From Takakia lepidozioides (lineage: Eukaryota > Plantae > Bryophyta), in NCBI GenBank assembly GCA_030704615.1, contig CM060733.1, forward strand, positions 49,538,001 through 49,602,000: a DNA stretch of 64,000 bases. Direction: 5' to 3'. This document shows, one piece after another, positions 18,897-59,910 of this stretch; position 1 is the stretch's first letter, and every line of letters begins with the position of its first letter. The position numbers were made by a program, and so were the translations under genes. The notes beneath the pieces are model-generated. The model was not told the DNA's origin. It did no database searches and saw nothing but the letters and a program-made list of their open reading frames with translations.

Positions 18897-18959
18897 GTGA
18901 GTTCTACCCCTACTTGTGTTCATGTTTTCTGGGCGTTGAGTTCTCCTGAAACTGAAACT

Positions 18960-19114
18960 GGGATGCACATATCCATAAAGTTGTTCAAACGGATCTCGTA
19001 GTATACAGGGCAGTAGAAGAAGAAGTGTTCTTCAGTTTCAATTTCCTTGTTGCGCCCTATGCAAGCTGGACATAGGCGGTCCTCCCGTTGCAGGTTTTCC
19101 CATCTGCCAGTCTC
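18960..19114 (-). mobile_element. LINE ORF2 3' end (Zn-knuckle), distal half of a LINE split by the MULE
   Basis: ETGRWENLQREDRLCPAC..ETEEHFFFYCPVYYEIR; joins in frame to 33445 when the MULE and one TSD are removed. Confidence 0.88.
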
Positions 19115-19533
19115 AGCGTAGCTACGGCGTGAGCCCAGCCCCGTGAGCCTGGGAGCTGAGCTCACGTTCAAGCTTTGAAGCGTGAGCTGAGCTCACGCTT
19201 CAGGGAAGCGTGAGCGGCATGAATCTGCTGGAGAAGCAGGTCCTATAGGCGAGGATTGCAGGAAGAGGGCCTATTACCGTGGACAAAACAAAGGAGGCCA
19301 CCATGCACCATGTCTGCAATGCGTGCCAAAAAAGAGGAATATGTAAATATGGCAGATTTGAGCTCAGAATGATTGACACAGTTTATTTCAATTCACAGAG
19401 AGACGCTTACAATGAATCGCAAGTGCATTTGCCCTGGTTCCGTGAACGAAATGTATATGTTTGTCATAAAATGAAAAGTCTTCACACGGCAACCTGGAAA
19501 CCAGCATGGGAAGCGGGCATGGCTCGTATGTGT

Positions 19534-22500
19534 TCAAAGAGAAGTTGGCGGAGCTCTACGCAAGGTGTCCCGCTGCAGAAGGGTGATGACTTCTCCGTAG
19601 CCTAGTGTGGCTTGGTGAATGAATTGGTCTCTCTTACCGTCACAACACATAATTACAAGGTATATGTAATATTGATGCTTGCAGGGGACCCACTTCCCTC
19701 TCATGCCGAGAGCGCCCTCACGCATTGTTACAAAATCCGGACAAGTGCACGATGGGAAATTCCCGATGGTAACCTGATATTCTTTGGCATGAAGAACTGA
19801 GCCAATTGACAGCACTGTGTAAATCCGTCCATACCCCGGGGAAGGGACTTCGGTGATACGAGTCACCCTAGCCTGCAAAATTCTAGCCGATTCCATCTTG
19901 CATTCGTGATCTGCACCCGAAGCAACACGGCGCACTGTTTTTCCATCTCTTTTTGTTGGGTGGGAGTCGGCACCGGGTGGAGGCATTGTCGGAGCATGTG
20001 GCACATCTGTGCCGACAGTGCATAAGGGCACCACCCGGGACCGTGCAAGACAAAACCCTCCCTCCTCCAGCATGCTTATCTCGGTTGAGGACAGCGATGT
20101 CCCAATTTTCACAGGCCAAATTGCGGGGGGAGGGGGCTTCATTATCACGGAAGGACGAACTGTTCCCTTCACGCATCGTGCCATATCGTCTGGGCAGAAC
20201 CAAAACTTGTGCTCTTTTGACTCCCCACTATGGTAAGGTCGGAACAACCCTGTGAATGTTGGAGCTGGAGTCCCCCTGGAGCCTTTGCATATTTTTGATT
20301 TGCATTTCTTGAATGAGGGGGTCCGAATTGCCATGCAAGCCACTCTAGATCCCGGTGGGGTGCGTTCTATATGCCAGTCACTATCAATGCAATCAGATTC
20401 CTGCACCATGGCCACCACCTCCTCCAATGGGATTTCCGCTGCTATGCTTGCATGTTCTGCACCTGCTCCACAGGAGGAGGACCCACCTGGGAAGGGGCCG
20501 GCACAGGACTTAGTCTGCACTGGAGACACCTTTGGCACAGAGAAATTGACCCTGTCTGGCCTATGGGAATCTCCATCTGACCCTGGAAGAGTGTTTAATT
20601 TCCTTTTGCATGATCCAAATCTTTCCTCGCCTTCCAAATGGGGGAGCCTGGATTGCAGAGGGGAGCCTTCAGTGCACCTGTTTAGAGCTCTGGCCATCTT
20701 TGACGGGTCTCCGGACCTACTCGCAGCCCTTAGCATCAACAAAGTCGTATCGGGGCCCTTCCCTCCACCCCGTCCCATCAGAAAATTGCGGTACCTGGTT
20801 TGTTGTGTAAGTGCCCGCACCATGTCATCAGCAGTGGCCACATACAAGTCACGACCTGCTTTGGTAGACTGTTGCATCCAGGCGTTGTGAACAGTCTCTG
20901 CCAAATTACACGATGGCATGTCGGCCAAGTCCTCCAAGGACATGTCCTGCAGGAGGCATTGCATGGAAATGTGAGGAAGGAAAAGAAATGGTAGAGGTTC
21001 TTCAAGTGACAATCGAACAACCCCAAATGAACAGGCACGATGCAAAGTGCATTTTGTGTTTAAGGAAAACTTGTGAGGCTTACCGTCGTCATGAAAGCTC
21101 CCCACTGTCTGTACCTGAAGTGCCAGAAAACCAACCAGTCCTCCAACTCCTTCAGGTGGATACCTGTAGCAGCACCAGAGGAGAACCACCAAGCCCGGAT
21201 TGCCTGGTAAGTGCTCTCAGCTTCTCCCATTGAGGTGGCATTCTTGTACTTCAGACAGAGCCTTCTATGCTCCAACTGAAGGTCAGGGCGAATGCAGCGC
21301 TTTGTATGACGTGCCAGAGATTGACTCCAATGGAAGAGGCATGTGCGCTCCCTATTTTCCATTGGGACCTAGGATCCCCCGAACCAAACACGCGCCGCAC
21401 TGCATTGAAATTTGCCTGTGCACTATCAGCCATGAAGCCCGCAAAATTTGTGTTCTGTATTCCATTGCGCTGCATGACGGCCAGGAGGGAATTCCACATG
21501 AGCATCTGGGATTCAGTGTCCTCCGACTGCATATCACAAATTGCTATGGAGAGCACACGCTGGTACGCTGGATCATACACATGGCACGCCATGGTTGTCC
21601 AACCCTTCACCCGTTTGCAGTGATCAAACATTAACCAACATTTAGCCAAATCTCCTCCAGGTTGCATTCGGCGGACAATGCTCACACCACTGCCTTGGCC
21701 CACAGCGGACATCTTGAACAAATACACTTTGGACGAGCCCTGGCCAGGGAACATACTGTTTTGAATGAATTCATAGCGACTCCTCCGTTTGAGGTCCATA
21801 ATGTTGTCCATGAATCCAGCAGTGCCTGTGCCCATTCTGAGTGCATTCACCTGGTTTCGAATATTGGGAGAGCTCAACACGGAGAAATGGTCCATGACTG
21901 CCTCAAGGGAATCTGCATCCAGCATTGGCTGTGTCGCATCCCCTTCACCCAGTATGTGTTTTTCCAGGAATGCCTTGCTAGCTGCAAGCGCTATAGCAGA
22001 AGGTGTTGCACAAGGGGCATTGTGGAACTCTTGCTTCAGTAGATTTCTAGCGATGTCCACGCTATCCCTGCAACTCCCTTTGGACACAGGATGCTCGTGT
22101 GCACCCATATGAATGCAGGCACGAGTCATTGTCTTGCATCGATGTGCCACCTGATACATACGAGCGTGGCAAACAGAAACACAGGACGGGGAAAGTTTGC
22201 AGAACCTGCACACAAAAGTATTGGTCTTGGGAGGTGCAAGCCCTGGGGTGAAAGGATTCAGGGGCACACCTTCCCACTCACTTTCGTTTGGCTGAGCGCT
22301 GTTTCTCAGCCGAGGGCAAGAAATATTCAGGCACTTGCAATGCCCAACGCAAACCGACCTCCGAAATTTCAAGCCAATGTCGTTATGGATGTTCGACGTT
22401 TTTGTCCTGCACCAAGGATGTCCGTCATGTTTCTTGTCCATGCCCTGCAGAAGCCCAGCCAGTCCACTGGAAGACGTGGGAGGGTTGAGCTCAAACAAGA

Positions 22501-23113
22501 TGTCCCCATCAAACTGAGCTGGCACGTATTGAACCCGTTGCACTGGAAGGGACTCCCAATCAACAAAACGTAGCTCGCTCTTGCACCCAGGCACACCTGC
22601 GAGGGCTTTCAATTTTGGAATGACACTTGTTATCTCTTGCAATTCGTCATCATCCAATAAGGGAGTTTGCACTGGCGGAGGAATCTCAGAAACATCCTCC
22701 GAGGACGAGTCCGAAAGAGTCACGAAGGTAGTGGATGTGCTCACCTCTTGTTTCACAGGAACTGTGCCCTTCTGTTGCACGACCGATGCTGCAGTGCCAG
22801 GGGTAACGACTGATCCTGCTGATTGTCTTCTCTCTTTTCCAAGGACACGGTATGTTCCTGGAAGGACTCTCCACTTCCTTCCACACTCGCCAACCAAGGG
22901 TTTCTCCAAGTGCCCAGAATCCAAATTCCCATCCTCGTCATACACCTCTTTCTGAACAAGCAGAGAACCCAACTCCAGCGGGAACACTGTAACCAGCTCA
23001 TCCTCATGAACAACTGCATACCCATCGTCGTCTGCAGTGGCAGTCAGTGGAAGAGTACCTGCATTGGAATGGAATCGAGCGAGTGCATCTCGCTCCCTCG
23101 ACATGTTTTCCAT
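19534..23113 (-). CDS. MULE transposase, ~1150 aa: GCM/WRKY-like Zn domain, DDE core, Cys-rich insert, SWIM finger; exons 23113-21084 and 20946-19534; one 1-nt frameshift near 21370
   Basis: DGHPWCRTKTSN..RSVCVGHCKC..C..CRFC..C..GAHEHP; LMFDH..FMADS..CLFHW..CNLAETVHNAW; FPSCTCPDF..PCKH; same intron position in copy B. Confidence 0.88.
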
Positions 23114-24046: not shown

Positions 24047-27000
24047 ATGAGGATGGAAAGAGTGGAGGAAAAGGAAAAGGAGGAAGAAGAGGGAATACAG
24101 GAAAGTGTGGCAATGGAGGAGCAGGAATCTGGAGAAGAACAACAACCCAACATAGTTCCAGGAACAGGCGAGGAGGACACTGCGTCTGAGGGAGAGACAG
24201 ACGACATGGAGGAAGATGTTGACACTGGCCTCACGAAGAATGTGACCACGGGAAAGAGGAAGGGGGAGAGGCTCACCTACATAGTCGGCGAAGAGAGCAG
24301 CCCGAAGCGGAAAGGGTCCCCGGCAACTGGGGAGTCTTCTCGAGTACCTACGAAAAAGGTAAAATCTACAGGACCCACATTTGTGAAGAATTCGGCTTTC
24401 AATGGCAGGTATTTGAGAGAGAAAGAACCATTCAGTGGCAGCTCAAAGAGTGTGCGTTGCCGCACACTGTTTGAGCTGCACAAGTCACTGTTTAAAGTGC
24501 AAAATTCTTCCTTCAACGACACCTTTCTGAGGATGAAATGAACCCCGCACTTCCAGCTCAAACAGTGTGCGGCAACGCACACTGTTTGAGCAGATCTTCT
24601 CAATGTTTTAGGGTGCAAAATTTGGCCTTGGAGTCAGTTATCTGCGGGTGAAATGAACCCTTCACTGCCAGCCCAAACAGTGTGCGGCAACGCACACTGT
24701 TTGAGCTGAACATTTCAATGTTTTAGGGTGCGAAATTTGGACTTCAGGGGCACCTTTCTGAGGATGGAATGAACCCTGCACTGCCAGCTCAAACAGTGTG
24801 CGGCAACGCACACTGTTTGAGCTGAACATTTCAATGTTTTAGGGTGCAAAATTTGGACTTCAGGGGCACCTATAATAGGATGAAATGAACCCTTCACTGT
24901 CAGCCCAAGCAGTGTGCGGCAACGCACACTGTTTGAGCTGAACATTTCAATGTTTCTCGGTGCAAAATTTGGACTTCAGGGTGATCTATTTGAGGATGAA
25001 ATGAACCCTTCACTGTCAGACCAAACAGTGTGCGGCAACGCACACTGTTTGAGCTGAACATTTCAATGTTTTAGGGTGCAAAATTTGGTCTTCAGGGTAT
25101 GTTATCTGAGGTTGAAATGAACCCTTCGCAACCAGCTCAAACAGTGTGCGGCAACGCACACTGTTTGAGCAGATCTTTTCAATGTTTTAGGGTGCAAAAT
25201 TTGGTCTTGCTGTCTGTTATCTGAGGGTGAAATGAACCCTTCACTGCCAGCTCAGACAGTGTGCGGCAACGCACACTGTTTGAGCTGAACATTTCAATGT
25301 TTCAGGGTGCAAAATTTGGACTTCGGGGGCACCTATGTGAGGATGAAATGAACCCTTCACTGTCAGCCAAAACAGTGTGCGGCAATGCACACTGTTTGAG
25401 CTGAACATTTCAATGTTTTAGGGTGCAAAATTTGGTCTTGCTGTCTGTTATCTGAGGTTGAAATGAACCCTTCACAACCAGCTCAAACAGTGTGCGGCAA
25501 CGCACACTGTTTGAGCAGATCTTTTCAATGTTTTAGGGTGCAAAATTTGGTCTTGCTGTCTGTTATCTGGGGGTGAAATGAACCCTTCACTGCCAGCTCA
25601 GACAGTGTGTGGCAACGCACACTGTTTGAGCTGAACATTTCAATGTTTGTGGGTGCAAAATTTGGACTTCAGGGTGACCTGTTTGAGGATGAAATGAACC
25701 CTTCACTGTCAGCCCAAACAGTGTGCGGCAACGCACACTGTTTGAGCTGAACATTTCAATGTTTAGGGTGCAAAATTTGGTCTTCAAGGTATGTTATCTG
25801 AGGTTGAAATGAACCCTTCACAACCAGCTCAAACAGTGTGCGGCAACGCACACTGTTTGAGCTGAACATTTCAATGTTTTAGGGTGCAAAATTTGGTCTT
25901 GCTGTCTGTTATCTGAGGGTGAAATGAACCCTTCACTGCCAGCTCAGACAGTGTGCGGCAACGCACACTGTTTGAGCTGAACATTTCAATGTTTCAGGGT
26001 GCAAAATTTGGACTTCAGGGGCACCTATCTTAGGGTGAAATGAACCCTTCACTGCCAGCTCAGACAGTGTGCGGCAACGCACACTGTTTGAGCTGAACAT
26101 TTCAATGTTTCAGGGTGCAAAATTTGGACTTCAGGGGCACCTATAATAGGATGAAATGAACCCTTCACTGTCAGCCCAAACAGTGTGCGGCAACGCACAC
26201 TGTTTGAGCTGAACATTTCAATGTTTCAAGGTGCAAAATTTGGACTTCAGGGGCACCTATGTGAGGATGAAATGAACCCTTCACTGTCAGCCCAAACAGT
26301 GTGCGGCAACGCACACTGTTTGAGCTGAACATTTCAATGTTTTAGGGTGCAAAAATTGGACTTGCTGTCTGTTATCTGAGGGTGAAATGAACCCTTCACT
26401 GCCAGCTCAGACAGTGTGCGGCAACGCACACTGTTTGAGCTGAACATTTCAATGTTTTAGGGTGCAAAATTTGGACTTCAGGGGCACCTATAATGGATGA
26501 AATGAACCCTTCACTGTCAGCCCAAAAGTGTGCGGCAACGCACACTGTTTGAGCTGAACATTTCAATGTTTCTCGGGTGCAAAATTTGGACTTCAGGGTG
26601 ACCTATTTGAGGATGAAATGAACCCTTCACTGTCAGCCAAAACAGTGTGCGGCAACGCACACTGTTTGAGCTGAACATTTCAATGTTTTAGGGTGCAAAA
26701 TTTGGTCTTCAGGGTATGTTATCTGAGGTTGAAATGAACCCTTCGCAACCAGCTCAAACAGTGTGCGGCAACGCACACTGTTTGAGCAGACTTTTCAATG
26801 TTTTAGGGTGCAAAATTTGGTCTGCTGCTGTCTGTTATCTGAGGGTGAAATGAACCCTTCACTGCCAGCTCAGACAGTGTGCGGCAACGCACACTGTTTG
26901 AGCTGAACATTTCAATGTTTCAGGGTGCAAAATTTGGACTTCAGGGGCACCTATGTGAGGATGAAATGAACCCTTCACTGTCAGCCAAAACAGTGTGCGG

Positions 27001-30000
27001 CAACGCACACTGTTTGAGCTGAACATTTCAATGTTTTAGGGTGCAAAATTTGGTCTTGCTGTCTGGTATCTGAGGTTGAAATGAACCCTTCACAACCACT
27101 TCACACAGTGTGCGGCAACGCACACTGTTTGAGCAGATCTTTTCAATGTTTTAGGGTGCAAAATTTGGTCTTGCTGTCTCTTATCTGGGGGTGAAATGAA
27201 CCCTTCACTGCCAGCTCAGACAGTGTGCGGCAACGCACACTGTTTGAGCTGAACATTTCAATGTTTCTGGGTGCAAAATTTGGACTTCAGGGTGACCTGT
27301 TTGAGGATGAAATGAACCCTTCACTGTCAGCCCAAACAGTGTGCGGCAACGCACACTGTTTGAGCTGAACATTTCAATGTTTTAGGGTGCAAAATTTGGT
27401 CTTCAGGGTATGTTATCTGAGGTTGAAATGAACCCTTCACAACCAGCTCAAACAGTGTGCGGCAACGCACACTGTTTGAGCAGAACTTTCAATGTTTTAG
27501 GGTGCAAAATTTGGTCTTGCTGTCTGTTATCTGAGGGTGAAATGAACCCTTCACTGCCAGCTCAGACAGTGTGCGGCAACGCACACTGTTTGAGCTGAAC
27601 ATTTCAATGTTTCAGGGTGCAAAATTTGGACTTCAGGGGCACCTATAATATGATGAAATGAACCCTTCACTGTCAGCCAAACAGTGTGCGGCAACGCACA
27701 CTGTTTGAGCTGAACATTTCAATGTTTCAGGGTGCAAAATTTGGACTTCAGGGGCACCTAATATGATGAAATGAACCCTTCACTGTCAGCCCAAACAGTG
27801 TGCGGCAACGCACACTGTTTGAGCTGAACATTTCAATGTTTCAGGGTGCAAAATTTGGACTTCAGGGGCACCTATGTGAGGATGAAATGAACCCTTCACT
27901 GTCAGCCAAAACAGTGTGCGGCAACGCACACTGTTTGAGCTGAACATTTCAATGTTTTAGGGTGCAAAATTTGGTCTTGCTGTCTGTTATCTGGGGGTGA
28001 AATGAACCCTTCACTGCCAGCTCAGACAGTGTGCGGCAACGCACACTGTTTGAGCTGAACATTTCAATGTTTCAAGGTGCAAAATTTGGACTTCAGGGTG
28101 ACCTGTTTGAGGATGAAATGAACCCTTCACTGTCAGCTCAAACAGTGTGCGGCAACGCACACTGTTTGAGCTGAACATTTCAATGTTTTAGGGTGCAAAA
28201 TTTGGTCTTCAGGGTATGTTATCTGAGGTTGAAATGAACCCTTCACAACCAGCTCGAACAGTGTGCGGCAACGCACACTGTTTGAGCAGATCTTTTCAAT
28301 GTTTTAGGGTGCAAAATTTGGTCTTGCTGTCTGTTATCTGAGGGTGAAATGAACCCTTCACTGCCAGCTCAGACAGTGTGCGGCAACGCACACTGTTTGA
28401 GCTGAACATTTCAATGTTTCTGGGTGCAAAATTTGGACTTCAGGGGCACCTGTTTGAGGATGAAATGAACCCTTCACTGTCAGCCCAAACAGTGTGCGGC
28501 AACGCACACTGTTTGAGCTGAACATTTCAATGTTTTAGGGTGCAAAATTTGGTCTTCAGGGTAACATTTCTGGGGATAAAATGAACCCTTCACTGTCAGC
28601 TCAAACAGTCTGCGGAACCGCACACTGTTTAGGCAGAACATATCAATATTGAAGGGCGCAACCTTCGGCCCTCATGGGCACATATCTGAGGATGAAATGA
28701 ATCCTTTACTGCCAGCTCAAACAGTGTGCGGCAACGCACACTGTTTGAGCAGAACTTTTCAATGTTCTTTCCCTGTGAAAATCGGGAACATAGGGCAGGT
28801 CCGTGAGGATCAATGAACACTTACCTGGCAGCTCAAAGAACACTTACCTGTTTGATCCCACTTTTTCATGCATCAGTCGACGTTTCATTCCTCTCTTATA
28901 AGAATTTGAGTGAACAACCTTGCAGGAGAAAATGCAAAGTGTGGCGGATGAGGTCCCTCAGGGTCAGGGGAAGGAGACCATAGTTGATGTTGACGATGAG
29001 TTTTATGAAAGCAAAGCCGCTGAGATGCTGGGGGTCAAAAGGTGAACTCTCAGCTTGTGGTTCAAAGTATGCTTGCTCCTGGTGGGAGGTTGAAGATTCC
29101 CCTGTGTAGGTTGGTTTCCATGCCCGTCGTTCGTCCACCCCTTGTCAAAGACATTCTCAAGCTGGAGGCCGAGTTTGTTCATGGGTATTTGGATGGATCC
29201 GCAGTCTTTTACGTTTCTACTAGGGATTCTAGAGGTAACGAGCTCCTTGTGGATGAGTCAATCGTCGACTCCTGGGACCCCATTTGGAGACAGGTGAACG
29301 AATCCTTCGAACTTCTTCTCTCCAGGAAACCTTCCACCCAGGTATTCTCGGGGAAGATGTTTCACGTTTGGGATGGCAACCACCGGTTGCTTGCATGGAT
29401 GGCTGTCATTGGGAGGCTGCACTCACAGGAGGAAGAGTGGCATTACTCTGTTCGATCGATGGTGCTTGATTGTGACGACAACATGATGGGTCTTCTGACG
29501 GCAATGAATGATGTGAACAGGTTGGTTTCTCATTGTACATGTTGCACTTCTGGTTCCGTTCTTCCTTGATTCAAGTCCTTGAATTACATTCTGAAATTCA
29601 GATATCATTCTGCAGAGGGACGGAGACATCGCATGTCAAAACGAGTCTGGTTCACACACTGTATAGGATACAAAGGATCGGGCAGATGCCCTTGACCAAC
29701 TTCAAGACCATCCTTTCGGCAGAGATGTATAAGAAATGCGAAAGCTCCAAGACTTCGGAAACATGGTACTCGTTGACCCGTGAGGCTTTCATGGAGTACA
29801 TGTACACGGTGAGATACATCTTCCTTCATCTGGCCTTTCCATATTCCTGCTTCCACATGTTTGTTTCTGTCTGTCTCCCTTGACCTTGGATTGATGCAAC
29901 TCTCTTGCATTCCCTTGCAGCAAGACATTGCAGATGCAGGGGAGCGTGGCAAACTGGAATACTACAGCTCTACCCCTGAGGAGAGAAGGACAGCAAAGGG

Positions 30001-32658
30001 GGTTGAAAGTCACATCCAGAAGGAGATGAACGCTACAAGAAGGACAATAATGAGTGCTTTTGTGAAGCAGTTGAGAATGGCCGACCCATCATTCGGGCCG
30101 CAGTTTCTCCTGGAGATAAAAAACCATTATAACAAGCCAGGCAAGCCGGAGATGGCCCAGGAGAAGTTGCACAGGTTGTCTACCGCCGTCGTGTCTTCTG
30201 AACAGAAGGTGAAGTGGCTACAGATATGGAACTCCGATCCCACAGTTAGGGATACCCACATGTTCCCAAGGCCAGAGAAAGAGAAGAAGACCCAGCGTGT
30301 CGTTCCTGTCAGTGACAATGTGCTGGACACCTGGCTTCACAAGGCCACTTACTGGAGCCAGGTGTGATGTCCTCTCGTATCTCACTTTCTTTTCTCTTTT
30401 CCTGTCCTTCTCTTCCCATTGCCTCTTACATTCGCTGTGACTGTTTTTGGGTTCATTCTTCCATTTCAATTGTTTTGCAGTTGGAAGAAAGGGCCCGATC
30501 GGTTCTGCATACTCAGCTGGCTGACTATGGCATCACTATGACAGCTCCGAAGGTCTCCTTCGAAGCTTACATGAGGAAATGGAGAGCCACAGTGTGGCAC
30601 TCTGGTTTCTTTAGAGAGTTCAGCAAGGAGGGTGGCATCAGTCGAACAAATGAGCTTGACCAGCAGGAAAAAGGAGAGGAAGCCTGGAAACGATGCCTTT
30701 ACAGGTGCACACCCTTGCACTCTTTACTTGTGTTGTGGTTGCAATGTGTTGTGTGGCATACTGTTTAAGGGGGTCTTCCTGGTGTGTTGAAAAAGCTGGG
30801 ACACAATATGTGCACTGGAAAATGAGGCTGTGTCTGTTCCTGCAGGTACATTAGGTTTGTTCTCTTGGAAGAGAATTGCTTGGACAAACATCCAGATTTC
30901 GTGGACCTTTGGCTTGTCCCTGCTGGCAACCAGACCATGTTCACTGCTGGGATCTTGCATGACTGGGGCCCAGACCATCTTTCTTCTTGTGGTTGGTATT
31001 TGGATTGCCCTCCTTCAGAGACCCCAGCTGTAGAGTTGTCTTTGAGGAGAGAGAATGACCGTATTGCAGCCACTGCCGCAGCAGCGGACCTCGACATTCA
31101 TGAGCGTAATCTGAGGACTCTTGCAGAGAAGGAGCCTCCCGCTCAGGATACCCCGGGTAGAGGAAGAAAGGCAAAGGGAAAAGATGTTGCTGGTGTTGTG
31201 GGGAAGGGAAGGGGTAGAGGGAAGGTGGCACAAGGGCAGGGAAGTGTTGCAGCTATTGGCCCTGTGGAGCATGTCCAGCAGACTCCACCGCATGGTAGGG
31301 GATCCGGGAGAAAAAACAAGGGGGTGGTTGATCCAAGGACCCGTACCATGCAGTGGAACATCCCACGAGGGTCATTCGTCCAACCAGGTTGGAGATTGCC
31401 AACGTCGGGTTCCTTGCCATGATGGAGTCGAAGAAATCTGATTACAAGGGCGAGCCATCACCAGTGTGGGAGAGGATTGTCGAGTTCCTCAGCACGGTGC
31501 GTGTTCTCTTTGGGTTCTGTGGCTTCTGCTCTCTTTGTCTGCTGTGGGCATGGATCGTTTATAAACTTGTCAGAATTCCATTGTATTTTTGTTTGCAGGC
31601 TAAAATGACCAAATCGTGGGTGAACGGGAAGGAGAAGCCATATGCAGCGGAACTCATCATCTTGGACATCCCTGATGGGTTGGCAGTCCCGGATATCCCT
31701 CCATCGGGTGCTTGTCCGGGTTGGAATGCATTTGATGAGCGCTACTGGCGGTGGGTTTTTTCCTTTTGCAACTTCTTCCTTTCCGATGCAGGTGTTTTGG
31801 TTCTCATCCAGTCCATCGATGTTCGGTGTCGCCGTGCCCTTGCCAGCTATTTGAAAGCCTCGGGCATGAGAGTCGTGAAGACATGGAATTGTGTGAACAG
31901 CATGTACCTTACGAAGGGGGATCGTCCGGGAGAGATGGTGAGTTTCCCTTCTTCTTCCTCTTCTTTTTTGTTCTGGGATTGTGTTGTATAGGTCGCTCGA
32001 ACTCATATGTAGGGGCCCGATTTTATTTTGGTTCTTAGTTCCTTGTGGATGTCATGTTCGCAGACTCGTCTGTTTGAAGCTGTTTGTCTCGTCCGGGTGC
32101 ATCCACCAACGACTCCGGCCGGCATTACGGAGTTTGCCATCACTCACGGGGGCAAGTTCATAGATGACAGGACAGATCCTCCCACGGATGACATGCATCA
32201 CAACTACGTCGACAACAACTTGTGCTTGCGAAGGGGGAATGGGGTTCCTTGGAGAGGGGCGAGGGAGAGGAGCCCGGCTTTCATTCAAACGATTGTGGAG
32301 TGCTGCACCTACACAGACGCCAGAGTTCTGGATTTGTCGATGGGCACAGGTTCGTCTCTTCAACATTCACATTTCATGAGGTTTGATTGAGCTTGCACTT
32401 TCAGCACTTTCCACCGTTCCGAATGTGTCTTCAATGTTGCTTACTTCATTCTATTCCACTGCAGGTGCTTCGTACCACGCTTGCAAGGCCAGTGCGCGAC
32501 ATGTCTTTGGGATTGAAGGGGATGCTGAGATTTACAAGAACCTCCTGATGGGTTTGGGTGGACACACTTCTCAGGTCCTTCCGAAGCCCCGTCCCGCTGA
32601 TACTGGTACAGAGGAGACTTCTGACAAGGAGCTGGACTCCGACTTTGCCTGTGAGTAA
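24047..32658 (+). CDS. ParB/Srx-like domain fused to a beta-class N6A/N4C DNA methyltransferase fold, ~1080 aa, 9 exons (24047-24358, 28926-29520, 29616-29808, 29921-30361, 30481-30704, 30846-31496, 31599-31937, 32064-32349, 32465-32658); 1-nt frameshifts near 29030 and ~31330
   Basis: ParB-like IPLCRL..VRP..HGY..FHVWDGNHRLLAW; MTase motif-IV-like ELIILDIPDG followed by ERSPAFIQTIVECCT..VLDLSMGTGASYHACKASARHVFGIEGDAEIY; all introns GT-AG and in phase; intron positions shared with copy B. Confidence 0.8.
24420..28770. repeat. Tandem array of 38 ~115-116-bp units, each with a palindrome of up to 40 bp, in intron 1 of the ParB-MTase gene
   Basis: CAGCTCAAACAGTGTGCG-GCAA-CGCACACTGTTTGAGCTG counted 38 times (first and penultimate degenerate); a ~22-bp variable segment takes a few recurring variants. 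Confidence 0.96.
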
Positions 32659-33444
32659 GTTCAACCTGTGCATGCTTGCATTGTTGTTTCAATATCGAGA
32701 ATCGCTGTTCTTGAGGCAAAGTGCACATGGGAGACATCCTCTTCGTTGGACTTGTGCATTGCATCATTGTGTTAAAAATGGGATTTTGTGGACATGTGTA
32801 GGAGTCCGCGTGCTTCCACTTGCCCTCCTGGGCTATCACACCTATTTGGACTTGTTTTCAGTCCTCCTCGGTCTTGTGTGCTACCTGTCTATGCGGAGGC
32901 ACTCGCAGCAAGCATGTCCGTTCATGGCACTCAGAGTCCACCTTGCGATGGCCTTCGTAGAACACGTGGTGTTGGGGCCAGAATCTTTGTAGATGACATA
33001 GCACAGGAGGTGGACACTGATTGTGATGACTGCGACACTTGATATGAAGTATTCTTTTGGTTTAATTCTGGGACAAATTTGAAATGGGATGGTTGTGTGT
33101 CCTTATTGTCCTCTTTGCAATGTGTGCGTGGAATTCACATTCATGGTTCCAAACTATTGTTGGAGATGGGGGTTGCATGGACTGCCCGGATTGTTCCTTC
33201 AATATATTTGTTGTTTTGTGGACCTCACAGACTTGAGTACATTGCAAAAACAAACAAACCACTTTGTTCTCAATTCTCAATTCTCCCCACATCAACCCGC
33301 GGAAATAGGTGACACCACTCGGAAATAGGTGACATCCGCGGAAATAGGCACTGTTTGCATGCTGACGTGGCGTGAGCCTGTGCTGGGCTCACGCTTTCCT
33401 GGGCTCACAGGCTCACGCCTCCAGGCTCACGGAATAGCACCCCC

Positions 33445-34440
33445 CTGCCAGTCTCTATCCGTAGGTTGTGGGAACCCACCCTGAACCGCCCCAATGCCCT
33501 CAAGAGGGAAGGAGGTAAGGGTGCTGAAAGGTAATTTGGTCTGAAGATTCTATCATCGCGGAGCACCAAGAATGTCTCTCGATAGAAGTGGAGCTTTGTT
33601 GTGAGATTGGGTAGCATCCAAGTTCTCTTGACATGTAATTCCATAAGCTCTCTCCGAATGAGTCTGTTGCGGTCATGTCTGGATGTGATGTCCACTTCAT
33701 CTGGGTTCATTGGTAATAGGAAAGCAGTAGAAAGTTCGTTACGTTTCAATAAACTGTCCACTCGAGCATACCAGGAGTTCCCGAAACTTGCAGCTTTGAG
33801 CCTCATAGATGTTGTGAGGGCCCTTGCCACTAGCCCTTTGGGTGGAAGGGCCTGCAATCTATGGAGAAAGATTGTAAGCCTGAACTGTGCCTCGGATTGC
33901 AATGGTACACATGTGAACTCTGCACCTAGGATCTGAGATGGAGTTGTGCTCCTGGCGCTAAGCATTGATTGGAGAAAAGATGACTGTAATGGTTCCAAAT
34001 TCTTTTCCCACCAGGAGACAGGGACACCAGGTGCCCAGAACTCACAACCATTGATGGTAGCAGGGCTGACGATGGTGTCAAACAGCCACTTTTTGGTCGG
34101 GGGATGCCGCAGATGTATTTGCTTGCATTTGGCGTGAAGGCGGACGGAGGCCACCTTACCTTTAGTCAATCTGTCCAAGGCAGTGGCTGCAAAGTGAAAC
34201 TTGGGGGAGTGGATAACCAGACCTAGGTACCGGTATGATTTGACAATCTCAATTTCCTACTGGTTGAAGATGAATCTACGATCAGCCTGGCCATTGAAGA
34301 CCATGATCTTGGTCTTGCTAAGATTGACTTGCATCCCATAGTCTTTGCAGAACTATTCCAAAATTTTGAGATGGCGTTGCAGAAAGACCGGGGATTGTGC
34401 CAAAATGGCAACATCATAAGCGTAGAGGAGATCTGATTGG
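33445..34440 (-). mobile_element. 5'-truncated LINE ORF2 fragment (RT C-terminal part), proximal half
   Basis: LLYAYDVAIL (YADD-like), VNLSKTKIMVF, YRYLG, LFDTIVSP..GCEFW, FRVGSHNLRIETGR. Confidence 0.88.
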
Positions 34441-37465: not shown

Positions 37466-37535
37466 GTGAAACTAACCTTACTGTTTGCAACATGACATCG
37501 AAGCCAAAGTCCATGTTTGTTTTGTTCCCCCTGGA

Positions 37536-46644: not shown

Positions 46645-46970
46645 AGCGCGGAGACTGCAACACAAGAGCAGACCGAGAATGAGGCTACAGCTGTCAAACA
46701 ACCAGAGGGAACAATGAGCGTAGGAAACCAGACTGTGGAAGCAGAGATGATTCGCAAGGAAACTGAAGGAGGTGGAAGTCCGGGGAATGCATAACCGGGA
46801 AAATGTCTACAAACCCTAGACCAGACAGGAATTCCGACAGATGTGAAGGGGAAGAGAAAAGCTGCAGAAGGGGATCCAACTCAAAACCGAAGAAGGTGCC
46901 AGTAAGTGTTCTCCACCCTTCTTTTTCCTGTTTGCAGATGTACAAAGAAAGTGAGTGAAATGTCCTAGAA

Positions 46971-48950
46971 AGTGATGGTCGGTACCGACCATCACTATGA
47001 AGTCATGTTGATTTGCTTTGCATTCCTCTGTTTCAGGTTTTTCATACCAATTGTTTATGACTGGCGGTACCGCCATTCACTGTTCTTCAGATCATAGAGT
47101 CAGTATGATTGTCTTTCCAGCACTCTTTCTCTTTGATTCTCTAGCAGGAACCTGTGATTGTCGGCAACGACATTCTCTTTCATTTCAAAACTCACATTCT
47201 GATACAAAAGAAAGTGAGTGTCGGTGACGACAATAACTATGATCCAGTATTGATTTGCACCAAACGCAATGTTTTCCATTCGTGAGTGTTGTTAATGCCA
47301 TTCGATTCTCTTTGTGAGCTTCCTGTATCTGCATGCGTGGAGAGAGTGTGATGGTCGCCACTGACCATCAATATTTAGTCATATTGTTTTGCATTGCATT
47401 TTCTCTGTTTCAGGTTGAACAGACTAATGAAAAGGAATGGCGGTACCGCCAATCACTTTTCTTGAGACTATACTGTAGCTTCATGTCTAAATACAGTTGC
47501 AAAGTACATTCCAAAGAGACAAGAAATAGTGATTGTCTTTAACAACCATCACAATGGAGTCTCTCTTATTAACGTCAATCGCATTCCTTTGAAAACATAG
47601 ACTTGTTGCATTTTAGACAATGTGCATTCCACTTACTTTCTGTTACAAACTAAAGTGAGCACTACAACAGATCGCGGTAGTTATGACTGCCAAACCGTGG
47701 TAGTCATGGTTTTCTTGACTTTGACCATGACTGCACCATGTTTAGATGAAATTGACCTCCCGCGTTCATACGACTGTAGTCATAAGAATGACTATCTAAG
47801 TAGTCATCTGTATGACTACATGGCTCCGGAATGGGCGGAAGGCTGGTCAACGGCAATTGACCAGATTTAGCTCACCATTCATAGTCATTTCCATGACTAC
47901 TGGGGATTTTGTAATTTGGTGTGTATAATACAATTAAAACACCATATGATCACATGAATGACTAATGGGTGTATTGGTTAGCAAGTAGTGAACTATAATT
48001 TTTATAGTAAAGAGGTTGCAAGTTCAAACTCCTCTAAGTACAATCAAATGGATAAGATGGCCCTAGGGTTAGTAGGCGAGCTAGAGATAGCACGTGGTAG
48101 CCTAGATGGGCTGCCACGTGGTTTTTTCATTATTATAAAATACATTATGTCAGGTGGCACAATGCGGTGCAACGCAGCGTCCGACATATGTGTTTTTTTT
48201 TTTTTTAAATTTAATTTTTAATCAATTGCGCCTCGCCACGTGGCGACTGCAGTATGATGGTATATATGACTGCAGTGAGAGATATCACTTGGTTCATCTG
48301 ACTGTAGTCATCCGGACCGTACCATCTTGTACTCATTGTATTCACTTGGTTTGCATAACTTATAGTCATAGAAGTCATATGTACCGTTTATGACTGCAGA
48401 ATAGTCATATATACAGTCATAAATACTGCGATCTGTTGTAGTGGAGTGTCGGTGCCGCCAATCACTAAGAGATATATTTCTTTGCACCAAACCGATCTTG
48501 TCAGTCTTTTGAGTGTAATGTTTTTTTATCGTCGTTACGCCGTTCGCTAATGCTCAAAACCTTTCTGTACCTGCTTGGCCAGAAAGAGAGTGATGGTCGG
48601 TACCAACCATCACTATGCAGTCATAGTGTTTTGGTTTGCATTCGTTTGTATCAGCTTTGTTAGTGTAGATGGTTGTGATTGTCGGTGCCGCCAATCACTG
48701 TGATTTGAGACAAGACAGACTGATAGTCGATACCGACATTCACTTTGCAGACACAATGATTTGGTTTGCCATATTCTGCAACACAAGATACACATACAGA
48801 TTATGATTGTCGGTACAGCCAATTGTCTCTTCAGAACATAGAGAACTTTTTGTTGTAAAGAAGCTGCATTAAACATTTTTAATCACTTTGAAGTCACTGT
48901 GCTGTCATTGTTTTGCCTGTGGACTGTGATTGTCGGTGGCGACCATCACT
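46971..48950. repeat. About 13 dispersed palindromes, consensus AGTGATGGTCG-GTAC-CGACCATCACT
   Basis: Perfect 26-bp palindrome at 46971-46996; variants near 47057, 47154, 47213, 47347, 47433, 47528, 48589, 48674, 48721, 48803, 48924; one split by the CACTA MITE. Confidence 0.85.
47660..48443. mobile_element. Non-autonomous CACTA element, 784 bp
   Basis: TIR CACTACAACAGATCGC / GCGATCTGTTGTAGTG; 3-bp TSD GAG on both sides; ATGACT/AGTCAT subterminal repeats. Confidence 0.95.
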
Positions 48951-49509
48951 ATTTGCACATAACTGAGTGTCTGATCGGCATATCATCATGCAGAAAACTG
49001 TGAAGTCCAAGCTGACAGGATTAGAGGCAAAAGGTTTTGGAGATGGGGACGAGTTTGCCAAGAGCTCGGAGAATAACGATGAAACAGATGAACCTGAAGT
49101 GCACTACCTTGACAAGGTGAAAGAACTCATGTCATCCCAAAAGGTAAACTCTCAGGAGGTTATTAGGGACATGCTCGTCTCTGGAGGGCGTCTGGACATC
49201 CCACTATGCCGGATGATATCTATGCATGTTGTGCGTCCTCCACTTTCCCATGACAAACTGATTTTGTGCATGGATACAGACTTGGTACACAAGTTTTTTA
49301 TGTATCACTGACGGATACAAATGGGAAAAGCACATTAGTGTCTCCTGAGATCACCGATACCTGGGATGAGTGCTGGAAAGATGTTAATGAGGAGTTCAAG
49401 TTGGGCCTCATGATGGGAAATAACACCCAGCAATTCTGCAACCACATGGTCTACATACGTGCACCCGGAGATGCAGCAAGAGAAATTGCACCGGCTGGTC
49501 ATCTCCATG

Positions 49510-53985: not shown

Positions 53986-56900
53986 ATAGAGTGTAATGTC
54001 TTTTGGTGCATGTCTCCACCAAAGTCTGCATGCAAGCTAGGGATTTCTCCCGTGCATCTCTCCAAGGGACACCAGTCGACCTTTTCGAGGTTCGACCTGA
54101 GTCCACGTAATTGAAGATTACATCATCCTCCACAGGCTCGCAGGTGGGGTCAATGTGAGCTGCAAGGTCCCTCAACTGAAACTCAACAATACCAGGAGGA
54201 AGAGTGTCCTTACGCACCCTCACCAGGCACAAAGCTTCGAACACCCGAGTCTGTCAATAATCACGAAGAGAGCATGAGGCAAAAGACAAAACCAACTTTT
54301 GACATTTACATCAGAACCACTAAACTTTAATTCAAAGGAACCAACTCACTTTCTGCCTCGTGAACTCGCCCTTCGTAAGAGGCAGAGTGTTGATGCATGT
54401 CCAAGTTTTGATGACACGAAACCCGGAAGCTTTCATGTAGTTGAAAAGAGTTCTCCGTGCCGACATGTCCTTTGACTGCATGAGAAGAAGAGCCCCCGAG
54501 TCAGAAAGGAATTTGTTGTTGAATGAGAAGGCCCACTGCCAGTAACGAGAATCCGATTTGTTCCAAGTGGGGGTTGAATTGGAAGGCAACACATCAGGGA
54601 CAGGGAAACCGTCAGGAATGTCCAGCACCACAAGGTCAGTCGCGTATGCCTGCTGAACTCCATTCACCCAATCCGGCCTTTTTGTGACCTACAGCCAAAA
54701 ACAGGAGAGTCAGAAGCCCAATCCAGATCCAACAGGAAATCAATCCCATCGACAAGCCAGAACAAGTTGCCAAAACAAAATTATTCATACAACAGTTAAG
54801 ACATATGTGCTTACCTGAGTGAGAAACGAAACAAGCATGTCCCATGATTTCGAAGGCACCCCTTTGAATGTCGACTTCTTGGATTCCATCATTGCCAGAA
54901 AACTTTCATTCACCACCTTACGATGGAACTGGCCCAAAACCCTGGATGCATGTTCTCTCGCATTGAAAGGTTGCTCCCTCGACTTTGCTGTTCTCCTATC
55001 TCTCCTAGTTGGAGAAGGTTGTCTCTCAGCGACCTCTGACGGGCCTTGTTCCTGCGGAGCTGCACTCTTCCCCTTCCCCTTCGGATCCCCGGCAATCTTC
55101 CCCTTCCGTTTTGGAGTAGCAGATTTCTTAGGCTCTTTTGGAGCCAGAGCAACAATGATTCTGTCCTGAATGTCTTTGTCAGCCAGTGGGGCAAGTGCCA
55201 CGGCGTTGTCGTTAAGGTTTCTCAAAACAACTTCATCGAATGGTGTGTCCTGTTTTGGCAGATCGAGGTACCATCCACAGTCTCTGAAGTGCGCCCTGCT
55301 CCAGCCTCTGGCAATACCAGCCGTGTACATTGTCTTGTCATTGGAGGGGTCAGCCCACGAGTAGATGAAGTCTGGGTCATCACTAAGGTACTTTCCCGGT
55401 ATGAGGACATGATACATGTACCTGAATGACACACACACCCAAAATCCAGACAGTCAATCGATCTGATCAGGACACACATCACACATCACAAAAAGTGTAT
55501 TGGCATGCAGGTCAGTAATACTGATAAACTAATGTTTGAAAGCCCGATTCAAATTGCGTTGATGCAATGTTGATTCAAGCTGAAATGGAAAACACCAAAT
55601 TTGGAGAATTGCACTTTCAACAAGCACGTATGAGAGGGAAAGCCCATTATCCTAAAACATCTCATGCACAACATGGAACCCCAATCAACCTTGCGTTGAC
55701 GCAAAGAAGATTGGCGGATACACCTATGATAATGTAGCATTGAAAGAGACAGTGATTGGCAACGGAATTCAACATTGCGTCAACGCAAGGTTGTTTTCAT
55801 TAACAGAGGAAATGGAAAACAGTGCTTGAAAACAACCATCCATATCAGATCTTCTGGTATGGATATTCAACCTTGCGTTGACGCAATGTTGAATTCCTCT
55901 GCTGAAACACTTGTCCATGGTATTTGATAACCTTAACTTTCCTACCATTGTATGGAAATCGGGGTATTTAGGCGGGACATTTCTAGCAATCCATACCGTC
56001 AAACAACGTTGCGTCAACGCAAGGCTGTTTGTTGGTACAGTGTAAGCTCTAAACAACATTTCAAACAGACTCCAAACCGACTTTAAGTTCATCCTGGCAG
56101 CATTGCAACTGGAAACCACCAAAAAAACAGCCCAAGAACACAGGAAAACCTACACAGCCTGGCCCTTCATCAACCTTGCGTTGACGGAAGGTTGATTTGC
56201 CTATCAGTTTTTGCCCTTTCACATGCAGAATAACGACTTCATTGGATACCCCAGGTACATGAAAGTGAAACCAAAACAACAGGATACAAGCTTGCGTTAA
56301 CGCAATGTTGCTCGGCTGCACGTCCAGAGCCTTTAGAGCTCCCTGAAAACCTCCAAATTCGCAGTTCTACATGGAAAAAACGAAACAAGAACACAGAAAC
56401 ATACACTTCAAGTACCAGATTTGTTTCTTGGAGGTCACACCTGTACAACACTCGTTTCATTGCTTGCTCGCTGTTGTACTGGTTTTTGAATTCGTAGGAC
56501 CTAGAGATTCTTTTTTTTCTCTCAAACTCCCTGAAGAAACAGTTGTTCCAGACAGCAAGCTTCCATCTCCTGATATAGGCCTCCAGTGTGACCGGGGGCA
56601 AGCCATCTGGATTTTGGAGTCTGCCATTGACTCCCCAAGTGCAGCCACCGCTCGTTTTTCCAACTGCAGCAAGAAAGATCATAAGAATTGTGGAGAGAGC
56701 ACGGAGCAGCACAAGCATTTGAAAATGGTTTTGTGGAAACTTTACTTGGCTCCAGAAGATTGCTTTGTGTAGCCATTGGTCGAATGTGTGGTCGCTAACA
56801 ACTTTTATTGCTTGTGTCTTTGAGTCCCTCTCAGGAGATGGGAACATGTTGGTGTCTCTCACAAGTGGATCGGAATTCCAGATCTCCAACCACCTGATTT

Positions 56901-59158
56901 TGGTTGCATTGTCCACCATTGAAATGGAAAGGCGATGCAGTTTCTCTTGGGTCATTTCTGTTAATGTGCTTTCACCTGTTCCAGAAATTCCGTGCCAAGA
57001 CCTGGATCTGCTATGCGGATTTGTTTGTCGAACGCACTCATGAGGTTCTTCCTTTGATTGTTCATCTCAAATTTCATTATGTCCTCAAGCCCAGTAGCAG
57101 ACCTCTACTCTTATGTGTGGGAAGCATAGTACTCTGTTTTCGCCTTCAAACCAGTTTCTGTTATTTCTTGCTGCATACATTACAGGGAGAAAGAATCAAA
57201 CACTGCCGTTTCTTCATAAAATTTGCAGTAACATCAATCAAACAAATATCAAGAAGCTTACCGTGTACATGTAGTCAAGAAAAGCCTCCCTTGTCAGGCT
57301 GTACCATGTGCTTGTCTTCTTTTCAGCACACCTCTTCATTTGCTGAGGACTAAGCACGTTCGTGAATGACTCCAGTGGCATCAGCCCTATTTTCTGGATA
57401 CGGAATAGAGTGTGGCAGAGATTTGTCATCACATGGGAGGTTTCATTGGACCTGGAAAAACCTTCAACTCATAAGATGATTTCTAATTGTGCAAACGCAG
57501 ATCGGAACGGGAACAATGTTGGTAACTTACTTGTTTATGTCGTGCATGGCTGTCAAGAGCTGCGTGACACGTCCTTTGTGGTCGAGTACCATGGAAACCA
57601 CGCTCCAATGCCATTTGATCTCGTCCGAGTGCAAGCTTGAAATGTAATCCATCCAGGCAAGCAGTCTATGGTTCCCATCCCAGACAAAAAACATCTTTCC
57701 CATAAACGCTTTTGTGGAGGCCTTTTTGGACAGCTTGAACTCAAACTCCCTGTTTACATCCCGCCAGCATGCATCCCAACTTTGCTCTATGTCCTCCGTT
57801 ACAAGACACTCCTCTCCTTTCGTGTTCACAGTGGATACATAGAACACTGCAGATCCATTGACATAGCCGTGAACAAAATCGTTCTTCAACTTCGTGACGT
57901 CGTTCCTCAATGCGGGTCGAACCGCGGGCATGGAGATCATCCTGCATAGTGGGATAACCAGGTTTCCGCCGGGAACCTCCATCAACAGAATCACCTTCGA
58001 GGAGTTCACTTTCTGCCCACCCATAACCTCCTCGGCCTTGTCTTCATAGTGTCCCTCAAATGACTCCTCCTCACCATCACCTTCTGCCACTTCCGCATCT
58101 CCCCCCACTGATTTCCTTTTTCTTTTCCTCTGCATAGAATGAATATCCCTGTGAGTGACAGATTGAGCTCCCATGGATCTACCTTGCGTTGACGCAAGGT
58201 TGATTGATGGGGATGTAGCTTAGTCTGAAATGCATACCGCAACAGTCCATTGAAACAACTAAATGCTTTGCGTTGATGCAGGAATCTTTTGGTGGCTTCA
58301 GATAATCGACTTTCCCTACTTTGCATTTCCTGGTGAGAGACTTCAGATGCAGGGAGTGGCATCAAAATCAGCCTCGCGTCAACGCAAGTTCATGTCACCT
58401 TCATAAACAAACACTTTGGAGGTCGGCATCAACCTTGCGTTGACGCAAGTTTGATGTCGAGCTCTTAGTTTGGTGTTCAACAAACAAAAAAATCACATGG
58501 AAAGGCACATTGCAACTTATGGTTTCTTCTTGGCACTGTATGATGCACCGGGAGCATTCAACAGTTCCATGGCTGCCAGGCGTTCAGGGTTTGTGGGATT
58601 GAACAGAAAAGGCACACGAATCAACCTCGCATCAACGCAAGGTTGATTTGAGTGCAGCATCTGCACTCGTTTCATGCCCAGAACATACACTGTGGAGGTC
58701 GACATCAACCTTGCGTTGACGCAAGGTTGATGTCGACCTTTCTGATGAGCATGGAACAGACCAAAAAAAAAAAAAAAAAAAAAAGGTTGATAGTCACCTC
58801 CGGTTTCTTCTTTGCACTTGATGATGCTCCTGAGGCATTCAACTTTTCCATGAGGTCTGGAGCATACTTCCAAGGAGGTCCCGGTGGTGCGAAACAATGG
58901 CAGACGGTATGGTTCTGTGTCCATCTCTCCTCTCTGGTCTCTCAAGACCTGGTTCTCCACTCGCAGTGCTTCCTCCCGAGCCCAGCTGACTTCCTCGTCC
59001 TCCCCCCCTTCTATTGGAGGTTGCTCTTCGGTCGCCTCCGGGATCACTTCAAGACCTTCCTCTCCAAACAGTGGTTGCAGAATCGGGTTTTGGCGTTCGT
59101 CCTCATCTCCGCCGGAGGTTTCTTCTCCCATTCTAAGTTCCCGTCTCGCCTTCCTCAT
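53985..59158 (-). pseudogene. ParB-MTase gene, copy B, 3'-truncated before the SAM-binding motif
   Basis: FFVWDGNHRLLAW; DLVVLDIPDGF; WRDAREKSLACMQTLVETCT; six intron positions shared with copy A. Confidence 0.85.
55545..58740. repeat. About 13 intronic palindromes, consensus ATCAACCTTGCG-TTGA-CGCAAGGTTGAT
   Basis: Seven copies in 55545-56315 and six in 58175-58740; 44-bp version at 58696-58739. Confidence 0.9.
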
Positions 59159-59910
59159 CCTCTCCTTAGCGTGTACCCTTTGCTTGTTTGATGTGAAGTA
59201 AAGTGTTCTTCAACGTTTTCTTCTCCCTCGTCTCTACAGAATCCAGGGTTGCAAGGACAATATGGAGAAGAAGGAAAAAATGGGGCTACGGTGGGTTCAG
59301 CGCAAGGCCTTCCACGCCTAGATGCTCGCTCGGAACGACCTGTGCGCCACATGCTCATTCCACATGCATGGCGAACACGTGTCTATCTAACCGTTATGAA
59401 TATCTCTGGAAATCATTTTTTTCTCATCCACTGAAATTCGTTCGGGTCCACCACTCATCCGAAAAAGTTCATTGATGAGTAATAGCTTTCGGGATGTTTC
59501 AGAGGAATGTGAAGTATGTACAGTTGTACAGTGGTGCAGGTGCCATTAAAATTGAATGGAAATGGGCATCTCATCTGGAATCTCTGACATGATAGGCAAA
59601 TGGCGGCTCTGTCAGTCAATCTTGCTGAGTTGGTTGTCCAATGCACTGGTGGGGCACCTGTGAGGAAACAGTTGAATTCTTTGATTAGGGCTGACATTAT
59701 CCACTCCGCATTTGGGCACTTTGCGACCGTCCACTTGGTACACATTTCTACGATGTGCCGAACCGCGTTAGGAGACCTGCAAGCGGGTGCGACACCTGCA
59801 ACTGTGTGTAAGGACGTCATCTATACAGCCAAAAAACTCCGCTCTAGTACAACCTGCAATCATAAGCAACGTCGGACTCTGAACTGTTCGTTTTGAAGCA
59901 ACATTGACAG

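Follow-up and report, generated by a model that had tools for sequence, protein, structure and literature searches.

Introduction

The VANDAL elements of Arabidopsis are Mutator-like elements (MULEs) with an accessory gene, and the VANC protein binds motifs that its own MULE carries, amplified as tandem repeats, in introns and in intergenic DNA (PMC5735166). A second point of reference is the beta class of DNA amino-methyltransferases (MTases). In N4CMT it is the fourth motif IV residue that stacks against the flipped target base (PMC10406627), and the substitution Y107G inactivates the beta-class enzyme HP0593 (PMC3036652). METTL14, which is proven inactive, retains the acid and the prolines of this motif (EPPL) with the aromatic residue gone (PMC5023411), and Trm61 methylates adenine using D-x-P (PMC5007650). 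Among the proteins covered by a survey of eukaryotic N6-MTases are phage MTases linked to ParB, inactive domains in DIRS1 and, from a chlorophyte, a ParB-HTH fusion that belongs to a different structural group; the family described below was not found in the part of that survey available (PMC4738411).

We analyzed a 64,000-nucleotide stretch of the Takakia lepidozioides genome (assembly GCA_030704615.1, contig CM060733.1, positions 49,538,001 to 49,602,000 of the forward strand), referred to as the window. The original prediction for this DNA had recognized an MTase fold with non-canonical motifs between 31599 and 32658, in two copies (A and B), and had asked whether it is an active 6mA/4mC writer or a pseudo-enzyme. 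What it had missed is that a Mutator-like transposon, which has arrays of palindromes in its interior, carries the gene as cargo.

Results

The cargo gene of element A and its predicted product

The segment 31599..32658 does hold the motifs, but it comprises only the last three exons (7-9) of a nine-exon gene on the plus strand (24047-32658). The product is 1,078 aa long, and the MTase domain forms its C-terminal part and begins earlier than was predicted, in the motif III region at about 31390. All eight introns are of the GT-AG type. Exon 1 (24047..24358), whose start is inferred, encodes an acidic low-complexity N-terminus; exon 2 (28926..29520) encodes a domain with the motif DGNHR; and exons 3-6 (29616-29808, 29921-30361, 30481-30704 and 30846-31496) encode a conserved middle region, a linker and the motif III region. 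Exon 7 (31599..31937) contains motif IV, DIPDG (31665-31679), a P-x-W-N sequence and the strands following motif IV. Exon 8 (32064..32349) contains a variable region, motif X, WRGARERS (32250), and motif I, VLDLSMGTG (32325), which is interrupted by an intron, and exon 9 (32465..32658) contains motif II, FGIEGD (32506), the tail and the stop codon. Motifs IV, X, I and II lie at residues 829, 982, 1007 and 1029 of 1,078, the permuted order of the beta class. Both glycines of motif I are kept in the window copy.

The single 1,078-aa frame is obtained only when one base is added at each of two sites, one near 29029 in exon 2 and the other near 31332 in exon 6. Contigs from all four sequencing runs (one of which may be the source sample) have the extra base at both 29029 and 31332, so open copies of the cargo gene exist; at these two sites the copy in the window has suffered either damage or an assembly error. 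No exon-exon joints at the predicted introns were seen in the contigs examined.

Taken singly, the window exons matched nothing in Pfam, among the PDB sequences or in a word-indexed set of long proteins, and profile A1 had no PDB match under E 0.1. An Atlas query with exon 7 returned unnamed first matches, and the named ones (0.85-0.89) were MTase families, which serve as leads only. The spliced product of A aligns with Ceratodon KAG0631975.1 (P0001; 1,147 aa) at 32% identity over 983 columns (E 9e-140), the MTase domain included, and P0001 scores 30.4 bits on Pfam PF01555 against a cut-off of 26.7; the two results together argue that the motif resemblance is not due to chance. Three further relatives (P0081, P0121 and P0122) match PF01555 below the cut-off. 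HHalign gave 98.5% against five phage enzymes, those five having been chosen together with P0001.

For structural comparison, we modelled the MTase domain of Ceratodon KAG0605740.1 (P0081, of the D-A-P-E type); a single-sequence model of P0001 reached a pLDDT of only 34. The P0081 model (pLDDT 65.5, pTM 0.43) has two confident halves that are misplaced relative to each other, and each half matches MTases. Foldseek ranked beta-class DNA MTases at all of positions 1-10, the best with E 2e-3 and none under E 0.001. The half with motifs X, I and II matches N4CMT structures (Z 4.9, rmsd 2.5, 67 residues). For the motif IV half, 5ccb, the human m1A58 MTase, is the joint best VIA match (Z 5.4, rmsd 1.9, 60 residues), and TrmM, Trm11 and Trm14 equal or exceed that score in a wide search. 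The beta-class assignment implied by the original prediction is upheld by PF01555, Foldseek and HHalign. With MTase matches for each half of the model, the lack of an MTase fold that the original prediction had named as a refutation is not indicated.

The DGNHR motif of the N-terminal domain is, as we take it, reminiscent of ParB/Srx. The ParB label is weak: the domain had no match in Pfam or PDB, and only one of five DGNHR-bearing queries (P0119) matched PHROG 1033, at E 0.044. The motif itself is conserved across nearly all stop-free rows. By its sequence, the cargo protein combines a DGNHR domain with a beta-class N6/N4 MTase domain.

A Mutator-like element carries the gene

The cargo gene is almost certainly carried by a transposon. 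Element A is a 14.3-kb Mutator-like element (19115-33444) in which the cargo gene stands head-to-head with a putative SWIM/DDE transposase gene. An exact 11-bp direct repeat (19104..19114 and 33445..33455) flanks it, in keeping with the 8-11 bp given for MULE target site duplications (PMC6446971), and the flanks joined without the element form one open LINE-like frame. The left end (19115..19215, plus strand) has a short degenerate terminal inverted repeat and subterminal GCTCAC/GTGAGC motifs, which recur at the right end (33345..33444, minus strand). The inverted repeat spans only about 42 bp, with 29 of 42 bases matching the other end in register; long inverted repeats are a MULE feature that non-TIR MULEs lack. 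A neighbouring CACTA transposase was considered as the carrier and ruled out, because it lies outside the target site duplication.

The transposase gene of A (19534..22600, minus strand; 5' limit approximate) encodes a C-terminal SWIM finger and has a frameshift near 21300. Its SWIM match is under the cut-off (E 0.0027), and that of a piece of copy B is over it (19.8 bits); neither transposase matches the Pfam MULE family. The D..D..CxxH..E residues were assigned by eye.

Element B has the same gene layout. Its cargo pseudogene (54002..58174, minus strand) has DGNHR at 57679 and DIPDG at 54622, ends at about 54002, before motif I, and carries stops and frameshifts upstream; its transposase gene (59900..63405, plus strand) is likewise broken by stops and frameshifts. 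The original prediction had read DIPDG correctly in both copies, A on the plus and B on the minus strand; its motif I is present in A, as are the flanking WRGARERS and FGIEGD sequences, and B has neither motif I nor motif II. Remnant C (46967..49457, plus strand) consists of a palindrome family and a decayed DGNHR-domain exon.

We collected 80 metagenome loci by their DGNHR domain. MTase exon 7 follows downstream in 23 of them, many others being too short to show it. Where at least 5 kb of upstream DNA was available (27 loci), a transposase lies upstream on the opposite strand in seven and is never placed otherwise; the other 20 have none within reach. Only 23 of the 54 DGNHR exons examined from other loci are stop-free; decay of most copies is as expected of transposons.

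An acid replaces the aromatic residue of motif IV

Ten proteins, one of them full length (P0001), were retrieved when the upstream domain of B served as the query. For motif IV, we used the 82 proteins found with exon 7, removed two repeat artefacts (P0019 and P0075) and added A, B and P0001. The motif is complete in 81 of 84 aligned rows. Its first position is D in 66 rows, E in 10, Q in 3 and N in 2, and its third is P in 70. The fourth is E in 46, D in 26, S in 3, N in 3, K in 2 and F in 1, that is, acidic in 72 rows and aromatic in one. The D-x-P-acid motif spans about 80 clusters at 50% identity, so the loss of the aromatic residue, proposed originally from two copies, is conserved far beyond them. 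Since A had been the seed of this set, we cross-checked it with genes that were retrieved solely by their DGNHR domain. Their unbroken motifs are DYPE (L009), DIPE (L024), DVPE (L087), DMPD (Selaginella), DPPS and HFPS (Adiantum) and DTPF (Ceratodon P0001), with an aromatic residue at the fourth position in one of seven, and in none of six further motifs that are decayed.

Motif I could be compared in 14 rows: the D and the second G are present in all 14, S/T in ten, the first G in six and F in two. The E of motif II is found in 8/8 rows. No row with a readable motif X (0/14) has the His in register, most having Gly instead, and P0001 has a His two places on; the K/R of motif X is conserved in the family. 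Fern copies retain F-x-G-x-G and, by eye, Selaginella retains the G-D of motif III. A tree support of 85/80 bears on whether the D-T-P-F of P0001 is ancestral.

The named relatives come from Ceratodon, Selaginella, Adiantum and Riccia, the Riccia gene model being without the MTase part. The viral contigs searched held no relative, and the prokaryotic genomes searched gave only one intron-bearing contig and one 11-residue match. We fetched five phage MTases for comparison. L081 and L083 have D-I-P-Y together with D-P-C-A-G-S-G, and the methylase L082 has D-F-T-M-G-S-G, which closely resembles the D-L-S-M-G-T-G of copy A. The DIP sequence and a motif I without Phe are therefore also found in annotated phage MTases, which are predicted enzymes, and only the change of the fourth residue from Y to D/E is exceptional. 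The weight that had been placed on the odd motif I is not supported, and the acid at position four is the real novelty.

Two further ideas were not retained. Descent from the phage D-I-P-Y clade was suggested by N-D-S-F and A-D-I-P sequences shared by eye, yet the profile scores (L081, 41 bits; L085, 36.5; L082, 36.2; L083, 28.8) do not separate the candidates; the tree with phage MTases carries a long-branch warning, and a query with P0054 returned no phage MTase. An invariant P-x-W as a stand-in for the lost Tyr is not favoured, since the W is present in the phage D-I-P-Y enzymes too.

Exon 7 is under purifying selection

Between A and B, pN/pS is 0.33 for the DGNHR exon and 0.42 and 0.59 for two MTase exons, in which pS is 0.72 and 0.63, so that silent sites are near saturation; one further piece, read in a wrong frame, is left out. 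Among copies of exon 7 in the four runs, 33 differences are listed, 18 silent and 15 replacement (pN/pS 0.24, p 5e-5). Two of the 15 replacement differences are stops, present in one run only; the 27 differences that recur in at least two runs comprise 18 silent and 9 replacement changes. The DIPDG codons are covered by all four runs and no difference is listed there, a missing row not being proof of identity. Purifying selection on exon 7 implies that the motif is kept rather than decaying. Both comparisons lie well below 1, and the neutral decay for which the original prediction had proposed this check is not indicated.

Palindrome arrays

Intron 1 of A contains an array (24383..28837) in which a 116-bp unit is repeated about 38 times, every unit holding one long palindrome with the core TGCG-GCAA-CGCA. 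In element B, palindromes with the core TGCG-TTGA-CGCA lie in introns (55682..58740), with more at 63613-63792. Elements A and B and remnant C each have their own palindrome family, and these internal palindromes are distinct from the terminal GCTCAC motifs. Short repeat families occur between the two genes in all seven loci that hold both, a count made without a control. Palindrome families of at least four copies were found in 12 of 28 upstream regions and in 1 of 16 controls (p 0.015), a comparison in which the A, B and C regions were chosen after their repeats had been noticed, the controls were unmatched and related families are not independent.

Nine of the 11 families have a YR centre in the majority of their copies, against a background of about 0.23; merging related families leaves 7 of 9. 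The pattern CG-N-YR-N-CG, or its deamination products, fits 10 of the 14 families examined, with arms that differ between families; the CG core is absent from the remaining four (L004, L052, L058 and L080). The central CG is kept in 1/13 copies in B, 0/11 in C and 3/6 in L030, and the outer CGs in 19/26, 18/22 and 12/12, respectively. This contrast was not found in L033, L077, L056 or L027. The tests of centre and CG are partly post hoc, and the copies are not independent.

Discussion

We propose, with slightly less than even confidence, that the C-terminal MTase domain is a pseudo-enzyme and would act as a VANC-like anti-silencing helper by binding the arrays of the element that encodes it. 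The two parts of this proposal deserve separate weights. The protein is probably not a canonical methyl writer; given that, binding of the arrays for anti-silencing becomes a reasonably likely role. The loss of the stacking aromatic together with the degraded SAM shell favours a pseudo-enzyme: normal 6mA or 4mC transfer would fail with the base-stacking residue gone and several SAM-contact residues degraded, and the residues that persist (D and P of motif IV, D/G of motif I, E of motif II) may hold the fold and perhaps SAM or SAH. We prefer a DNA-binding anti-silencing helper because the combination of a MULE, an accessory gene and family-specific repeats is the VANDAL/VANC layout. Beta-class MTases act as dimers that share DNA recognition, which would suit two-fold palindromic sites. 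A dimer of the cargo protein might then recognize the CG-N-YR-N-CG sites, leaving the separate terminal GCTCAC motifs to the transposase, and its binding would shield CG sites or recruit activating chromatin factors, as VANC for VANDAL.

Several observations weigh against a pseudo-enzyme. The catalytic acid (76/81 rows), the proline at position three, the D and second G of motif I and the E of motif II persist from moss to fern as in an enzyme; the motif I glycines of the window copy, the F-x-G-x-G of ferns, the G-D of Selaginella, the D-T-P-F of P0001 and the D-x-P of Trm61, with its non-aromatic fourth residue, point the same way. As for array binding by the cargo protein, the arrays may instead serve the transposase as binding sites or function in a promoter. 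Also against the proposal stand the four families that have no CG core, the limits of the region comparison given above, the 20 loci in which no transposase was within reach and the weak ParB label.

One alternative is that the protein is an active MTase of unusual chemistry, in which the Asp and the new acid transfer a methyl group without base stacking and so mark the element's DNA against 5mC silencing; its candidate products would be 4mC at CG, 6mA at the central CA/TG, a methylated ring nitrogen such as N1 of adenine, or a methylated basic protein residue. The conservation of Asp1, Pro3, the motif I D/G, the motif II E and the motif X K/R, the constraint on position four (acidic in 72/81) and the sufficiency of D-x-P in Trm61 (PMC5007650) all favour it, as does the tie of 5ccb as best match to the motif IV half. 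A Z of 5.4 is, however, in the range of a common arrangement, and TrmM, Trm11 and Trm14 do as well or better; the motif X His, the motif I Phe and the first Gly are degraded in most moss-type rows, and loss of the Tyr inactivates HP0593 (PMC3036652). We regard this alternative as rather unlikely. Silencing may also be uninvolved, the protein being a structural transposition cofactor like MudrB whose DGNHR domain and dead MTase domain clamp DNA or provide a scaffold, either in the transpososome or in the choice of target, and the arrays belonging to the transposase or to a two-way promoter. The fixed head-to-head layout, the reported necessity of mudrB for integration (PMC6446971) and the DGNHR motif retained in nearly all stop-free rows fit such a cofactor, but the CG-rich palindromes with family-specific arms, lying in cargo introns and distinct from the terminal motifs, would be left unexplained, and we think it unlikely.

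The preferential loss of the central CG in B, C and L030 raises a different idea, namely that, by flipping out the central C of CG-N-CG-N-CG and having two acids in its pocket, the domain promotes deamination of this base or exposes 5mC for removal. The contrast is missing from four other families and the copies descend from each other; moreover, hairpin-loop deamination, loop inversion or selection on the outer CGs would account for the pattern without an enzyme, so we consider this very improbable. A broader version, in which a ParB-MTase fusion of prokaryotic derivation loads on the arrays and edits them through its D-x-P-acid site, making it a transposon-borne epigenetic writer or eraser that opposes silencing, is unlikely; the edit would consist either of a methyl mark of an atypical kind or of a central C that is flipped and deaminated. 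Least credible is neutral decay of a captured gene as the origin of the motif changes. The two single-base gaps of A, the pseudogene in B and the minority of stop-free DGNHR exons are what decay would produce, but the motif is shared by about 80 clusters, pN/pS ranges from 0.24 to 0.59, and the extra base is present at both gaps in 4/4 runs.

The element offers candidates for an effector as well as for a target sequence. Two questions become testable with it: how, in elements other than the VANDALs of Arabidopsis, transposons actively escape silencing, and whether loss of the stacking aromatic still leaves an amino-MTase able to work or to be reused. It also cautions against taking PF01555 matches in a moss or fern genome as evidence of 4mC or 6mA.

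How, then, does the family compare with described systems? A full-text literature search, with subscription journals mostly outside its scope, found no description of the element, and the word "methyltransferase" does not occur in the available text of a MULE review (PMC6446971). The domain has the order III-IV...X-I-II of beta-class MTases (PF01555: M1.HpyAVI, CcrM and M.RsrI, and the phage enzymes L081 and L083), but it has an acid instead of Tyr/Phe at motif IV position four and G-[PA]-R-E-K in motif X where they have H-P-T-Q-K, and the cargo gene is spliced and places the domain behind a DGNHR domain and some 500 further residues, inside a transposon. N4CMT of rotifers and MpDN4MT1 of Marchantia are likewise eukaryotic beta-class domains of likely prokaryotic origin. 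Those two are active and keep SPPY/TSPPY (PMC10406627; 10.1101/2021.02.12.428880), whereas the present family has D-x-P-D/E, is multi-copy transposon cargo and has S at the first motif IV position in none of 81 rows; strict kinship with them, as suggested in the original prediction, is not supported. By its predicted motifs, then, the domain is of the beta class but lacks the signature both of active N6/N4 MTases and of N4CMT/DN4MT1. Inactive N6-MTase domains inside DIRS1 provide a precedent from another MTase clade (PMC4738411). METTL14, also of another clade, has like this family kept the acid and proline and lost the aromatic (PMC5023411); it partners an active subunit, for which a protein of the P0001 type with D-T-P-F is a candidate here, and the motif II acid is kept in our family. 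The likeness to VANDAL/VANC is one of layout, since there too an accessory gene sits in a MULE whose introns and intergenic DNA hold family-specific repeats (PMC5735166); here the cargo has an MTase fold and the motifs are palindromic with a common CG core, the arrays being its cognate sites by inference. By analogy, the element is VANC-like in layout and METTL14-like in motif and would belong to neither group, and its cargo apparently adds to the eukaryotic beta-class MTase domains a family not described before, which a DNA transposon has spread through mosses, a lycophyte (spikemoss) and a fern.

Insertion of element A and other transposons in the window

The Mutator-like element A interrupts a reading frame on the minus strand that encodes a LINE-like reverse transcriptase, one part of which lies at 18950–19114 and the other at 33445–34800. 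Because this frame is split by element A, element A is the younger insertion. Within array A, the tandem palindrome array in intron 1 of its cargo gene, the loop of unit 1 (24439–24478) is in the opposite orientation relative to those of the remaining units, the kind of inversion that template switching at a hairpin would be expected to produce.

Beyond the limits of element A lies a fragmented CACTA transposase gene (10638–16897, minus strand), for which Pfam identified the Transposase_21, DUF4218 and DUF4216 domains. An LTR retrotransposon at 37535–44485, with gag/pol-like frames on the minus strand, has an LTR pair that is 98.5% identical across 726 bases; this element inserted recently. 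It is adjoined by an ORF on the plus strand (36340–37095) with a Pfam match to NIF/HAD phosphatases (PF03031). The window also contains a direct repeat of approximately 890 bases (471–1355 and 4878–5764; 94% identity between copies), and the 432-aa ORF between the copies (2002–3300, minus strand) had no match in a Pfam scan.

In element B, the 3′ end of the cargo pseudogene has been replaced by a piece that is related, with 89% identity across 149 bases, to PPR-like repeats identified by eye at 50366–51308 and 53728–54036. The GCTCAC/GTGAGC motifs at 63940–64000 resemble the end motifs of element A and probably mark one end of element B, truncated by the window edge.

Family members elsewhere

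Ceratodon possesses both the D-T-P-F type (P0001/P0011) and the D-A-P-E type (P0081/P0128) of the MTase motif IV, encoded on different chromosomes. Of the two, the D-T-P-F type, which has a His close to motif X, is the stronger candidate for a version that is active or resembles the ancestor. A complete family gene with introns and the motif DVPED was found in a contig assigned to a cyanobacterial MAG (L087:1-4691), and the contig is likely plant contamination. Another locus, L078 (8123–8702 and 9226–9632), carries a tandem unit of 116 bp, the same period as that of array A, together with a recurring palindrome that looks like bacterial parS.
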